64,000 bases of DNA from Candidatus Multivorans sp. (GTDB lineage Bacteria > Acidobacteriota > Thermoanaerobaculia > Multivoradales > Multivoraceae): contig CBDCVC010000002.1 in NCBI GenBank assembly GCA_965222875.1, forward strand, positions 1,172,723 through 1,236,722, read 5' to 3'. A model generated the notes under the pieces. The model was not told the origin of the DNA. It did no database searches and worked only from the letters and a program-made list of their open reading frames with translations. Of the stretch, positions 156 to 63,697 are shown one piece after another. Each line of letters opens with the position of its first letter. The first letter of the stretch is position 1. The position numbers and the translations under genes were made by a program.

Positions 156-234
156 GCCGCCTGCGGCGGCAGCGGGTCAGAAGACCCGCGCACCCAGAGC
201 ACCGTCGTCGACGTAGCGCAACGCTCTACTGCAA
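156..234 (+). repeat. REP-like hairpin repeat, single copy
   Basis: gccgcctgcggcggc-agcgggtcagaagacccgcgcacccag, then 31 nt, then ctgcaa; the stem carries a compensatory T/A pair. Confidence 0.85.
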
Positions 235-238
235 GCTC

Positions 239-3007
239 CTAGAACGACCAGCGCATGCCGGCGTTGAAGGTCCGGCCGGTGATGTCGTACTGGGAAGCCC
301 GGCTCGCGATGCCCCGGTAGAGGTAGACCACCTCTTCCGTCAGGTTGTTCGCCTGCAGGAACAACTCGAGACCGCTGTCGAAGAGATAGGTGAACGAGTA
401 GTCGAGGTACATCGCCGAGTCGTTCCACTCGTCCGAACCGGCCTCGTCGCCGACCTCGCTCAGCCACCTGCCGCTCATGTTGAGGGCGAGCCGGGTCAGC
501 ACCCTGTTCTTCTCGTAGATGAGTGCCAGGTTGCCCACGTTCTCCCTCTGTTCCGGCAGCACGTTGATGTCGTCCCGGTCGGTCTGTTCACCGAGATCGA
601 TGCTCATCACGTCGGTGTACGTGTAGTTCGCGTAGATGCCGAAGCCCGAATCCCAATGCTGCTGCCAGGCGACCTCGATGCCCATGAGGTCCGCGTTGCC
701 GCCGTTGACCGGTTCCTCCACGTCGAAGCCGTCGAACTCCCCGCCGCGCTGGGTCGTCCCGGTGACGAAGTTGAAGTCGTCGATGCTCTTGAAGAACACG
801 CCGCCGGAAACGATGCCGACGTTGTCGAAGAACCGCTCGACCAGGAAGTCGAGGTTGTTCGAGAGCGCCGGCTCGAGGTGCGGGTTGCCCCGCACGATCT
901 CCTCGTCGTCCGTGTGGGTGTAGGAGAACGGCATCGAATCCCAGAAGTTGGGCCGGGCCATGCCGCGCGTGAAGGCGGCTCGCAGGAGGGTCTCCTCCGA
1001 CAGGGCGTAGCGGAACTGCAGGTTGGGATAGACGAAGTCGTAGGACCGCGACACGCTCTCCTGCGTGTTCCTGAGCACGTCGTCGTCATTGACCACGAGG
1101 TTCGCCGCCGAGTAGTCCAGGTCGTTGAACTCGCCACGGACGCCCACCAGCATCGTCAGTCGTCCGTACTCCTGGGTGGTCATCGCGTAAACGCTGGTGA
1201 TGTCCTCCTCGGCGTTGTACGGCTCCCCGAGGTTCACGTCGTTGCGCACCTCCTCCTCGAAGCCGCCCGGGCCCTGGTTGGCGTAGAAGAAGGAACGGAA
1301 GCCCGCCCGGTTGTACTCCTGGCCGAGGTTGTAACCGCCCTCGGTGAGGTTGGCGCCCCCGGCCTCGAACTGGTCGAGGAACAGGTCGTCATCGCCCTTC
1401 CACTTCCACTTCGAGCGCAGGTCGGCGCGTTCCTTGTGCAGCGCGCGGACCTTCACGCCCAACTTGAACTCGCCGGTATCGCTGCCCCACTGCATCGGCC
1501 GCGTCAAGTCCAGCTTGGCGGTGTCGATCGTGCTGGTCGTGTTCTCGAACTTCTCGTCCACGGCGTCGAACTCGAAGACACCGCTGTCATGGATGTCCTG
1601 CCGGGTCGAATCCCAACCCGGCGCCTTGCCGCCGATGTCGGTCACGTTCAGGTCGAACCCGCGGGCCTGGAACTCCGGCTTGAGCTGCCCTTCCGGCTTC
1701 TTGGTGAAGGCGCCGCTCGTCGACAGCGAGAAGTCGAGCACGGACAGACCCAGCCGGTGCTCTCCGCTGACGGCATAGGCCGTGATCTCCTGCTCCTCGA
1801 GACGATCGTGCAGGGACTTCACCAACCTCAGGCCCTCGACCTCCGTGGGGCTGATGTAGTCGCCCTTGTCCCAGCGAATCCGCGTGATCTGGCGATCCTG
1901 GTCGTCTTCGCGGTAGTTCTGCACGACGCTGAAATCGAGCTTGTGGTCGTCGTTGATCCGCACCTCGAGACGCGCGTTCGCGCCGAAGCGGTCGCGGTCG
2001 TTGGCCGAGAACTGTGCCTCCGTGTTCCTGAGCGCATAGGGAATCTCCGCGCCGCCGACGGTCTCCCGGTCGCCCCACTTGTGCTCGTTGTTGTGGCGCT
2101 CGGCCGCGGTGCGCGCGAAGTTGACGCCGATCGAGAATCCGAGGTTCTGGTTCGTACCCAATACGGTCGAGTAGTTGAACGCCGACCGCGAGTGGGTGCC
2201 GTCGGCGATCGAGTTGTCGCCCACGCCCAACGTGAAGTTGGTCACGCCGTCCGGCTGGTCGAACGCGCTCCGCGTCTTCAGGTTGATCGCGCCGCCGACC
2301 GAGTCGGCGTCCATGTCCGGGGTCAGGACCTTGGTCACCTCGATGCCGGTCAACTGAGCGGCCGAGATGACGTCAAGCTCGACCATGCGATTCGCACTGT
2401 TCGAGTACGCGACCTGCTGGCCGTTGATCGTGATGTTCGTCATCGCCGACGGCGTGCCGCGCATCGAGACGAAGCGGCCTTCGCCGTTGTCGCGCGTGAT
2501 GCTGACGCCGCTGACGCGCTGCAGTACCTCGGCCGTGTTCAGGTCCGGGAAGCTCTGGATCTGCTCCTCGGAGAGCACGTTCTTGATGTTGATGGCCTGC
2601 TTCTGGTCGTTCAGCGCCTTGCTTTGCCCGAAGCGGACGGCCTGAACAACGATCTCCTCGGCGAACTCGTAGCGGGCGTCGAGCTGGATCGGCAATGTCA
2701 CCGTTCCCGACGCGCTCACCGAGACGCTGGCCTCGAAGTCCTCGAAGCCGACGTAGTTCACGACGACCGTGTAGTCGCCAGCCGGTACGCCGTCGAGGCG
2801 GTAGCGGCCGTCGCTACCCGATCGCGTGCGGTACTGCGTGTCCTGGAGCTCCACCTCGGCGCCCGGAAGCCGTGCGCCGGATTCCTTCTCGGTGATCGTG
2901 CCCTGGACGGATGGGCCGGCCTGCGCCCAGGCCGTGCCGGCGCAGATGAACACGGCCAATGCCGCAAGGCCGGCACGGGTCAGAACGTTCGCGAATCGCT
3001 GTTTCAT
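239..3007 (-). CDS. TonB-dependent receptor
   Basis: 922 aa with signal peptide, carboxypeptidase-regulatory-like N-domain, plug motif (VLQRVSGVSI...GEGRFVSMRG, DMDADSVGGAINL) and C-terminal aromatic end (GMRWSF). Confidence 0.95.
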   Translation of the reverse strand: MKQRFANVLTRAGLAALAVFICAGTAWAQAGPSVQGTITEKESGARLPGAEVELQDTQYRTRSGSDGRYRLDGVPAGDYTVVVNYVGFEDFEASVSVSASGTVTLPIQLDARYEFAEEIVVQAVRFGQSKALNDQKQAINIKNVLSEEQIQSFPDLNTAEVLQRVSGVSITRDNGEGRFVSMRGTPSAMTNITINGQQVAYSNSANRMVELDVISAAQLTGIEVTKVLTPDMDADSVGGAINLKTRSAFDQPDGVTNFTLGVGDNSIADGTHSRSAFNYSTVLGTNQNLGFSIGVNFARTAAERHNNEHKWGDRETVGGAEIPYALRNTEAQFSANDRDRFGANARLEVRINDDHKLDFSVVQNYREDDQDRQITRIRWDKGDYISPTEVEGLRLVKSLHDRLEEQEITAYAVSGEHRLGLSVLDFSLSTSGAFTKKPEGQLKPEFQARGFDLNVTDIGGKAPGWDSTRQDIHDSGVFEFDAVDEKFENTTSTIDTAKLDLTRPMQWGSDTGEFKLGVKVRALHKERADLRSKWKWKGDDDLFLDQFEAGGANLTEGGYNLGQEYNRAGFRSFFYANQGPGGFEEEVRNDVNLGEPYNAEEDITSVYAMTTQEYGRLTMLVGVRGEFNDLDYSAANLVVNDDDVLRNTQESVSRSYDFVYPNLQFRYALSEETLLRAAFTRGMARPNFWDSMPFSYTHTDDEEIVRGNPHLEPALSNNLDFLVERFFDNVGIVSGGVFFKSIDDFNFVTGTTQRGGEFDGFDVEEPVNGGNADLMGIEVAWQQHWDSGFGIYANYTYTDVMSIDLGEQTDRDDINVLPEQRENVGNLALIYEKNRVLTRLALNMSGRWLSEVGDEAGSDEWNDSAMYLDYSFTYLFDSGLELFLQANNLTEEVVYLYRGIASRASQYDITGRTFNAGMRWSF

Positions 3008-3218
3008 GGCCCAGTCTCCCCAAAAAGATTGTTATGAGTTAGAGCACCCCCACTCGCCTGAGCAGGGGTGTTGATCGGTTCCTTCGGGAGCGCTATCGGC
3101 TCGAGTAGCTACCACAAACGCTGTTGGAGCAAGCTAGCACAGGGGGCCGCCCCAAGTGCCCTAGCGGACGGGAGATCCAACTGTATGGATACTGGCCCGT
3201 GTTCTTGAAGCCGCGGAA

Positions 3219-63140: not shown

Positions 63141-63233
63141 GTGGGACTTGGGATGGCGGGGCTCGGGGAGCGTAGCGGGTGCGGCGGGGGGAGGGCAAGC
63201 AAGCCCGCGCAGCCGCGAAGCGGCGCGCGGAAA

Positions 63234-63569
63234 CTAGCCCATTCGGAACAGGTTCTGCATCTGCATCGCCAGGCCCATGTCGCCGGCGATGCGCAGGCGG
63301 CCGGTCATGAAGGCGGTCATGCCGTCCAGGCTGCCGGCGGTGAGTTCCACGTAGTCGGCCGCTTCCATCGACACGGTCATCGTCGGCGCGTCGTGGGCGC
63401 CCTCGCCGACGGTGCAGGCGCCGTCCTTGATCGCGCAGTGCCAGACGCCGCCGCCTTCGCCCGAGAGGTCCAACTGGATCACGACGTCGAGACCGGCGGC
63501 GGCTTCCGGGTCGAGACGGCTGGGCATCTGCGAGAAGATGTCGCTGAGGGCGGCGGCGGTATCGGTCAT
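63234..63569 (-). CDS. SCP2 sterol-binding domain protein
   Basis: IQLDLSGEGGG.W...IKDG.C.V.EG....PTMTVSM...D......G.LDGMTAFMTGRLRIAGDMGLAM. Confidence 0.92.
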   Translation of the reverse strand: MTDTAAALSDIFSQMPSRLDPEAAAGLDVVIQLDLSGEGGGVWHCAIKDGACTVGEGAHDAPTMTVSMEAADYVELTAGSLDGMTAFMTGRLRIAGDMGLAMQMQNLFRMG

Positions 63570-63639
63570 CGGGAGGGCTCTCCTGCGGGTCTGGATATCG
63601 GACGTGTCGGAAGGATGGACGGATTCTCCGTAGACGGCT

Positions 63640-63697
63640 CGGGCTCGCCGCTTCGCGGCAGCGCGCTTGATGCGGGCCAGAAGGCCCGCGCACCCAG
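63640..63697 (+). repeat. REP-like repeat, box A only
   Basis: cgccgcttcgcggc...gcttgatgcgggccagaaggcccgcgcacccag; same upstream variant as the 50410 copy; no ctgcaa box. Confidence 0.8.

Follow-up and report, generated by a model that had tools for sequence, protein, structure and literature searches.

A stretch of 64,000 nt from Candidatus Multivorans sp. (Acidobacteriota, Thermoanaerobaculia; contig CBDCVC010000002.1, positions 1,172,723 to 1,236,722), hereafter referred to as the window, carries a family of short dispersed hairpin repeats. These repeats most probably represent a lineage-specific family of repetitive extragenic palindromes (REPs) and of REP doublets forming long hairpins (REPINs), similar to the bacterial interspersed mosaic elements (BIMEs), and belong to a system of the Thermoanaerobaculia (Ca. 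Multivorans and its relatives) mobilised by a REP-associated tyrosine transposase (RAYT). The family is previously undescribed (the literature search found no paper containing these repeat sequences), while the kind of element is well known. A preliminary description of this DNA suggested a RAYT-associated REP family and listed the mobilising enzyme as unknown; the suggestion gains support from a RAYT-type Y1 transposase, which the same repeats flank in six related Thermoanaerobaculia contigs.

Each copy in the window consists of a 7-bp hairpin with the AGAA loop, followed by GCACCCAG. The search with box A (GCGGGCCAGAAGGCCCGCGCACCCAG, 26 nt, which is only the core of the whole unit) at up to 3 mismatches identified 15 matches in the window and none in 100 shuffled sequences. 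Reading of the sequence added 4 copies, one split by an insertion sequence (IS), one split in its loop, one degenerate (50281-50306) and one with a variant stem (52221-52246). The total of 19, where 0 are expected by chance, agrees with the earlier estimate of about 18, and all 19, previously "almost all", are located between open reading frames (ORFs) with Pfam-supported products (TonB receptors, FGE-sulfatase, TetR, DUF3604, VWA, Maf, a phosphoglycerate mutase-like protein and a Tle1-like protein). Read on the strand that usually matches the mRNA of the upstream gene, the unit starts with a distal box, which reads TTGCAGTAGAG or belongs to one of three further flavours (TTGCAGAACAGAG, TTGCAGCAGGGC and TTGCAGTACAGAG), followed by a spacer of about 25 nt, the 8-nt foot CTGGGTGC, which stands directly 5' of the stem in every copy, the 7-bp hairpin with the TTCT loop, 1–6 nt, and a subfamily-specific GC hairpin (hp1). 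At least six recurrent types of hp1 were observed, and hp1-like hairpins are found also at "empty" sites.

The compensatory changes in the stem, noted already in the preliminary description, were confirmed. In the window, GCGGGTC pairs with GACCCGC at 172, and GCGGACC with GGTCCGC at 42190 and 44380. Copy numbers, spacer lengths and covariation were obtained from pattern censuses and pair counting; in the census of relatives GCACCCAG served as the search anchor, so that nothing follows from its constancy in that sample. When four stem positions per side were left unconstrained, 319 matches were obtained, 310 of them fully Watson-Crick and representing four variants, and the 1.76 Mb of related loci contain 381 hairpin-bearing sites. 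All fetched related DNA taken together exhibits six perfectly complementary stem variants, with the loop AGAA in 321 of 397 well-paired sites. Among 39 distinct variants 94.5% of cells are paired, and both sides vary in four of the seven pairs. Covariation scores 0.428, a value attained by 0 of 500 shuffles; shuffled sequences score 0.182, and slid registers do not exceed 0.089. The data support structural constraint on the hairpin, although the covariation fits selection at the DNA level or at the RNA level alike. Short GC-rich palindromes, dispersed in many extragenic copies and with stems maintained by compensatory change, are characteristic of REPs.

The units join tail to tail into (+,-) doublets, with the starts of their REPs 128–134 nt apart and a total length of mostly 154–160 nt. 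As a single strand, the doublet forms a 28-bp terminal stem with an imperfect interior, i.e. two inverted REPs at a defined spacing make up one long hairpin, as in REPINs; some doublets have perfect inverted ends of 28–55 nt. The two halves usually carry different flavours of the box, and in 15 of the 46 doublets they carry different stems, each perfect by itself, which indicates that compensation acts on each local hairpin and not on the long hairpin of the doublet. Tandem amplification of doublets and of halves was observed in the window as five units of 129 nt (8154-8794) and as periods of 265 and 333 nt (43653-44440).

The first lead to the transposase was a comparison of all ORFs of the fetched loci with an approximate E. 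coli YafM query, which gave one match beside a doublet; it was superseded by database tests. The candidate RAYT is an ORF of 206 aa in the genome sequence OZ244152.1 (positions 3913-4531 of the fetched locus L078), which matches the Pfam Y1_Tnp family (E-value 2.9e-10) and the NCBIfam model of the REP-associated tyrosine transposase (E-value 1.2e-21), and in comparison with the E. coli TnpA-REP structure (4ER8 in the PDB) both the HUH motif (NHVH) and the YIRRNPV motif are aligned. Homologs are numerous (5,529 at E-value ≤ 1e-20, in Acidobacteriota, Verrucomicrobiota and Proteobacteria), and many of them have been named "REP element-mobilizing transposase RayT" by JGI. In OZ244152.1 the gene is flanked on the left by a REP(+) at 3778 with the CTGCAA box and on the right by a doublet (4587/4720), with an array of 265-nt period adjoining. 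Homologs in L079 and L080 (73–74% identity), L081 (67%), and L223 and L224 (88%) are also placed between inward-pointing REPs. The arrangement that defines a REPtron, a RAYT gene between inverted REPs of the same family, is therefore found in all six loci, as the preliminary description had proposed to look for, and the RAYT is the sole transposase consistently bounded by the repeats. The stems beside the RAYT genes differ by lineage (GCGGGCC, GCCGGCC, GCGGGTC), with the loop and the foot unchanged. A scan of OZ244152.1 by six peptide patterns, which is no exhaustive copy count, returned one RAYT locus. Synteny with OZ244152.1 places the gene about 14 kb past the right end of the window, and the comparison with L223 about 6.2 kb past it.

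The relatives possess a second REP-like family with a 3-nt loop (GCGGGCG-AGA-CGCCCGC-GTTCCCAG, i.e. with the tail GTTCCCAG), observed in L223 (2543, 3783, 4032, 15708), L224 (15602), L073 (6084-6186) and L036 (~1430-1549), which resembles the REPs beside the Verrucomicrobiota relatives of the RAYT. It was not found in the window.

The exact box A was found in 77 stretches of GTDB representative genomes, all of them metagenome-assembled genomes (MAGs) of Ca. Multivorans, Thermoanaerobaculia or "Holophagales" (Acidobacteriota), and a scan with the four inner stem positions free returned the same group among the matches listed. The window is 92% identical to OZ244152.1 at 1.336–1.361 Mb, and sequencing runs labelled as sponge metagenome contain parts of it. 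Comparison with these relatives revealed both filled and empty sites. In L073 a doublet is present between two VWA-domain genes, where the window (47101-47138) and L054 have no repeat and the stop and start codons of the two genes overlap. In the second case, L019 lacks 119 nt that are present in L036, where they end precisely with the final base of the hairpin. No target-site duplication was seen at these two sites (L073, L036). One end is exact in these comparisons (that of the hairpin in L036), and the others are blurred by neighboring hairpins and diverged flanks. Inspection by eye of L073 1909-2210 found no stop codon in the inserted doublet in the frame of the downstream VWA gene; the doublet might be read through as an N-terminal extension. 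The synteny with OZ244152.1 and OZ245033.1 (L054, L073) ends at a REP cluster, upstream of 44469; at this point, about 800 nt of repeats and an IS in the window stand against a single doublet in the relative. A segment of 1.7 kb (50482-52211) is inverted relative to OZ244152.1 (L039 4411-6139) and is bounded in the window by the REPs 50410-50435 and 52221-52246.

Several points weigh against a RAYT-mobilised REP family. The window itself contains no RAYT gene, as already stated in the preliminary description. The sequencing run X1, which contains 97% of the window's words, has no contig that matches the L078 RAYT at ≥85% identity, just short pieces of diverged homologs around the HUH motif, one of them at a depth like that of the window; a RAYT in the window's own genome is a prediction made from sequence. 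The score of the 206-aa ORF against the NCBIfam RAYT model (77.2 bits) is just below the cut-off of 80. Deletion could likewise account for the filled and empty sites. Finally, the canonical GT[AG]G foot is missing from the 5' side of the hairpin. The preliminary description had pointed to GTAG on the reverse strand of the second box, yet this tetranucleotide occurs only within one flavour of the box (TTGCAGTAGAG), about 25–28 nt from the hairpin, and its usual place is held by CTGGGTGC.

By analogy with E. coli TnpA-REP and the IS200/IS605 enzymes, a HUH/Y1 RAYT, presumably single-copy and encoded beside the REP arrays, would recognise on single-stranded DNA a core unit comprising the 8-nt foot CTGGGTGC directly 5' of the 7-bp GC hairpin with its TTCT loop (on the other strand, the hairpin with the AGAA loop and GCACCCAG). 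It would then cut and rejoin the DNA, spreading and amplifying the units in intergenic regions; the catalysis, strand choice and cut site of the enzyme are postulated from the same known systems. The spacer, the box and the outer hairpin would be inherited by descent, and their length would be held because the halves of the doublet face each other. The hairpins downstream of genes probably act also as putative 3' RNA structures.

A similar foot is found outside Ca. Multivorans and its kin. In Verrucomicrobiota, Proteobacteria and other Acidobacteriota, relatives of the RAYT have C[CT]GGGNNC, followed by a 7-bp hairpin, on their flanks (e.g. in Prosthecobacter, Haloferula, Ereboglobus, an alphaproteobacterial MAG, and others). 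Beside the RAYT genes in L080 (3575-3630, 3778-3800, 4530-4575) and L081 (4718-4757), the foot/tail alone (CACTGGGTGC or CCCAGTGGCG) is iterated 3–4 times without hairpins; these iterated motifs may have been left behind by successive rounds of cutting and joining at the foot. It could be proposed that the C[CT]GGG-footed hairpins are the cognate REPs of a large RAYT clade, in which the 8-nt foot serves as the guide instead of GTAG, and that, in addition, the Multivorans enzyme cuts and joins at the TGCAG/GTAG box about 31 nt away, in a manner similar to IS608. We regard this combination as unlikely, and its second part shares the evidence, on both sides, with the next alternative.

According to that alternative, the repeats have a bipartite end like that of IS200/IS605 elements, with the hairpin and the foot as the recognition site and the TGCAG/GTAG box about 31 nt off as the site of RAYT cleavage and joining. 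The preliminary description argued along similar lines for a bipartite protein-recognition site rather than a plain REP, on the grounds of a strict spacing (31 nt, and 32 nt at 8829) with free sequence. The length was largely confirmed in the window, where the gap between CACCCAG and the CTGCAA-like box measures 31 nt in 16 of the copies and 32 nt in the one at 8829 (the box is absent from the copies at 63672 and 52221). Family-wide, the gap is not fixed and varies between 30 and 32 nt with the mode at 31 (30, 31 and 32 nt in 12, 42 and 13 copies, respectively, among the 318 non-redundant copies from relatives). Several observations agree with a special role of the box: immediately beyond CTCTACTGC the solo units are no longer similar, the 129-nt tandem units are joined at TTGC^AG, and CTGCAA is found also between the left REP and the start of the RAYT gene in L078 and L080. 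On the other hand, the freedom of the spacer sequence had been overstated: non-redundant spacers exhibit 49% mean pairwise identity (27% after shuffling) and conserved ends (AGMWMCGSCGTCG at the start and CTCTA at the end), i.e. they are homologous, so their constant length can be explained by descent and by the hairpin of the doublet. Moreover, the box is carried by just 69 of the 318 non-redundant copies (22%) and is missing from the remaining 78%. Relatives with the same foot and hairpin, whose RAYTs are 67–73% identical, have amplified minimal tandem units of 28 nt (L081 6474-6613) and 39 nt (L079), comprising the foot, the hairpin and a few bases without the box; no common distal box was seen in the REPs of the RAYT relatives from other phyla, and the iteration of the tail motif itself beside the RAYT genes points to activity at the foot. 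A bipartite end thus appears quite improbable, and the spacer of 31 nt, together with the CTGCAA box and the outer hairpin, is best read as the body of one long subfamily and not as a second protein-binding half-site; the box seems to form the outer boundary of single units and of duplication joints.

Another alternative places the selection at the level of RNA: the double hairpin would be a stabiliser of the 3' untranslated region (UTR), a terminator or a small RNA, spread because of its usefulness, with mobility being secondary. The orientation of the repeats agrees with such a role, since the 192 singletons turn their tail side towards the 3' end of a gene in 133 cases and towards the 5' end in 39, often at 1–60 nt from the stop codon; however, this bias fits either strand-specific insertion or selection for a role in the 3'-UTR. 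The loop of hp1 (e.g. at 156-170, 4322-4337 and 8166-8180) varies at one position (TTCG, TACG, TGCG, TCCG). UNCG is an RNA tetraloop closed by a C-G pair, and C-GNA-G is a very stable DNA triloop. Because TNCG on one strand of hp1 is CGNA (C-GNA-G) on the other, the loop fits a role in RNA or in single-stranded DNA and is not diagnostic. In Rfam nothing reached the gathering threshold; the best sub-threshold match, Pseudomon-groES (44348-44448, +; 33.5 bits against the threshold of 50, E-value 0.0014), spans the distal box, the foot, the REP hairpin and the outer hairpin. REP-bearing pieces are present in contigs from sponge metatranscriptomes, but the metatranscriptome and metagenome contigs compared with positions 1-9200 of the window break at the repeats and are uninformative on transcript ends. 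The hairpins are not followed by a T-run, and copies are found in either orientation, as inverted doublets and as tandem arrays; the sites are polymorphic between genomes, and a transposase gene is in tight linkage with the family. We find it very unlikely that the family is in essence an RNA element.

Two copies in the window have been invaded by other elements. An IS110-family element of 1443 bp (42210..43652, minus strand, outside the repeat family; transposase ORF 42506-43567) has entered a REP precisely at the junction of GCGC and ACCCAG, with no duplication. Its transposase matches Pfam PF01548 and PF02371 (Transposase_20) and the NCBIfam "IS110 family RNA-guided transposase" model (351 bits), i.e. 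the element combines a DEDD transposase and site-specific insertion without target duplication, as is typical of IS110. An 87%-identical copy in another genome (L038, 4311-5750) occupies the same point (GCGC^ACCCAG) of a different REP copy with different flanks. The 3' non-coding region of the element contains CACCCAG (42359-42365), identical to the tail of the target, and GCATGTAT (42278-42285), identical to the joint of the IS end and the target; both are conserved in L038 and may be bridge-RNA guides aimed at the REP (the segments relevant to this guide-loop idea are CUGGGUG and AUACAUGC). The second element (44175..44242, plus strand), a 68-nt double hairpin (GGGTGGCGCG-ATCC-GCGCCACCC ... 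GTGCGCCCG-TCAT-CGGGCGCAC), lies in a REP loop between AGAA and GGCCCGC; similar copies are present in 11 other fetched loci from several genomes, and it is a second small repeat family able to nest in REP loops. That the REPs themselves are miniature inverted-repeat transposable elements, i.e. deletion derivatives of a DDE- or IS110-type IS moved via long terminal inverted repeats, is hardly credible despite the perfect inverted ends of some doublets and the physical tie of the IS110-family element to one copy, given that the ends of this element (ATGTATGGTCCGCCCC... and ...GGACCATCCCATT) are unlike the repeat, that it interrupts a copy and is not bounded by copies, that single hairpin units and 28-nt tandem units exist, and that target-site duplications at the filled sites and a consistently repeat-bounded transposase other than the RAYT are lacking.

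Among known systems, close counterparts of the family are the REP/RAYT systems (REPtrons, REPINs) of Enterobacteria and Pseudomonas (Nunvar 2010; Bertels & Rainey 2011, PMC3116915; Ton-Hoang 2012; Messing 2012, PMC3479197). Both exhibit GC-rich extragenic hairpins with an unpaired conserved foot 5' of the stem, many dispersed copies, inverted doublets whose fixed spacing allows a long hairpin, sites downstream of genes, one repeat-flanked RAYT locus found, and stems that covary between lineages. Here, however, the foot is the octanucleotide CTGGGTGC and not GT[AG]G, the stem has just 7 bp, an additional outer hairpin, specific to the subfamily, and a body of about 37 nt ending with CTGCAA are present in many units, and the host is an uncultured acidobacterial lineage. 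With the BIMEs of E. coli, in which Y and Z REPs form mosaics joined by defined linkers, the family shares alternating REP subtypes, linkers of fixed length, tandem amplification (here five units of 129 nt and periods of 265 and 286 nt) and mixed pairs, in stems as well as in box flavours, while the sequences are unrelated and the linkers here are longer; E. coli BIMEs bind IHF, gyrase and Pol I, and the likeness drawn here concerns sequence anatomy.

TIRtrons (TIRYTs) and atypical REPtrons have been reported from Acidobacteria as well as from other phyla (Di Nocera 2013, PMC3733652; Quentin 2018, PMC6006769). They comprise acidobacterial Y1 transposase genes with non-GTAG inverted repeats, which can form small repeat families (PMC3733652). 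Their terminal inverted repeats (TIRs) share the G-rich GGGGWSAS, which recalls the GGG core of the foot described here, whereas our repeats are true short hairpins with a foot and a high copy number. In its motifs (NHVH, YIRRNP) and its length of 206 aa, the RAYT is closest to subclass 2.7 of Quentin, which has been reported with GT[AG]G REPs (PMC6006769). The ends of IS200/IS605 elements (IS608, ISDra2) share with our system the HUH/Y1 enzyme and, presumably, the recognition of a subterminal hairpin; the bipartite end considered above takes its analogy from IS608, whose cleavage site keeps a constant distance from the hairpin. Membership in IS200/IS605 was rejected: the 206-aa ORF scores 23 bits against the NCBIfam IS200 model (cut-off 55), its tyrosine motif is of the RAYT type Y...NP (YIRRNP) and not Y...Q, the flanking hairpins are inverted and not direct, TnpB is absent, and the transposase is apparently not multicopy.

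Along the window, the repeats are arranged as follows. The solo unit at 156..234 (+) consists of hp1 (GCCGCCTGCGGCGGC, 156-170), the REP (GCGGGTC-AGAA-GACCCGC followed by GCACCCAG, 172-197), the 31-nt spacer (198-228) and CTGCAA (229-234), and it abuts the TAG stop codon (239-241) of a TonB-receptor gene on the minus strand. The REPIN-type doublet at 4135..4350 comprises REP(+) 4167-4192, 31 nt, CTGCAA (4224-4229), a 29-nt centre, TTGCAG (4259-4264), 31 nt, REP(-) 4296-4321 and the outer hairpin TGCCGCCGAAGGCGGC (4322-4337). At 8154..8794 (+), five head-to-tail units of 129 nt, 98% alike, each contain hp1, the REP, the 31-nt spacer, CTGCAA and the centre, with neighbours joined at TTGC^ of the distal box; the array is closed by an inverted terminal half (8795..8885, minus strand), which runs from TTGCAGTAGAG through a 32-nt spacer and REP(-) 8829-8854 to an outer GC-rich hairpin. 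The left part of the REP interrupted by the IS110-family element (42173..42209, +; REP part 42190-42209) is made of hp1 and GCGGACCAGAAGGTCCGCGC, and the remainder consists of ACCCAG (43653-43658), the 31-nt spacer and CTGCAA (43690-43695). The cluster of alternating REPs that follows (43653..44440, with the spacings of 265 and 333 nt) includes copies at 43782-43807(-), 43899-43924(+), 44047-44072(-) and 44380-44405(-) and the loop-split copy (44164-44174 plus 44243-44257, +), with subfamily-specific outer hairpins between the REPs.

The doublet at 50281..50471 is located between convergent genes; its degenerate left REP (50281-50306) lies 2 nt past the stop codon of the Maf gene and is followed by 31 nt and CTGCAG, and its right half consists of REP(-) 50410-50435 and an outer hairpin extending to 50471. 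The variant REP at 52221..52246 (-) combines CCGGGTGC with GCCGGCC-GGAA-GGCCGGC, the stem variant that dominates in related genomes. The solo REP with an outer hairpin at 63636..63697 (+), which has no CTGCAA box, is 95% complementary to 50410-50471 and lies 13 nt from the TAG stop codon of a minus-strand gene that starts beyond 64000. The window contains also repeats unrelated to the REP family: four tandem paralogous ORFs on the minus strand at 56.6–61.6 kb, 70–85% alike (repeat families D4, D5, D13, D15, D16, D18 and D20), and a pair of DUF3604-like paralogs (8976-10901 and 24480-26309), 15.5 kb apart.

For the annotation of these genomes, the family accounts for most of the long "empty" intergenic stretches of the window. 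It bears on the shaping of genomes by REP clusters: synteny breaks, an inversion, tandem arrays and the targeted insertion of an IS110-family (RNA-guided) element are all found at these repeats. It extends the REP/REPIN-RAYT systems, studied mostly in Gammaproteobacteria, to uncultured sponge-associated Acidobacteriota, and provides a foot other than GTAG, which is met again, as C[CT]GGG, in loci of a widespread RAYT clade. With one invariant foot and six covarying stems, the repeats offer clean material for the study of RAYT specificity. If the 8-nt foot were the guide of this clade and the Multivorans enzyme in addition cut at the distal box, they would represent a REP architecture and specificity so far undescribed, and a test bed for the evolution of guide recognition by RAYTs.

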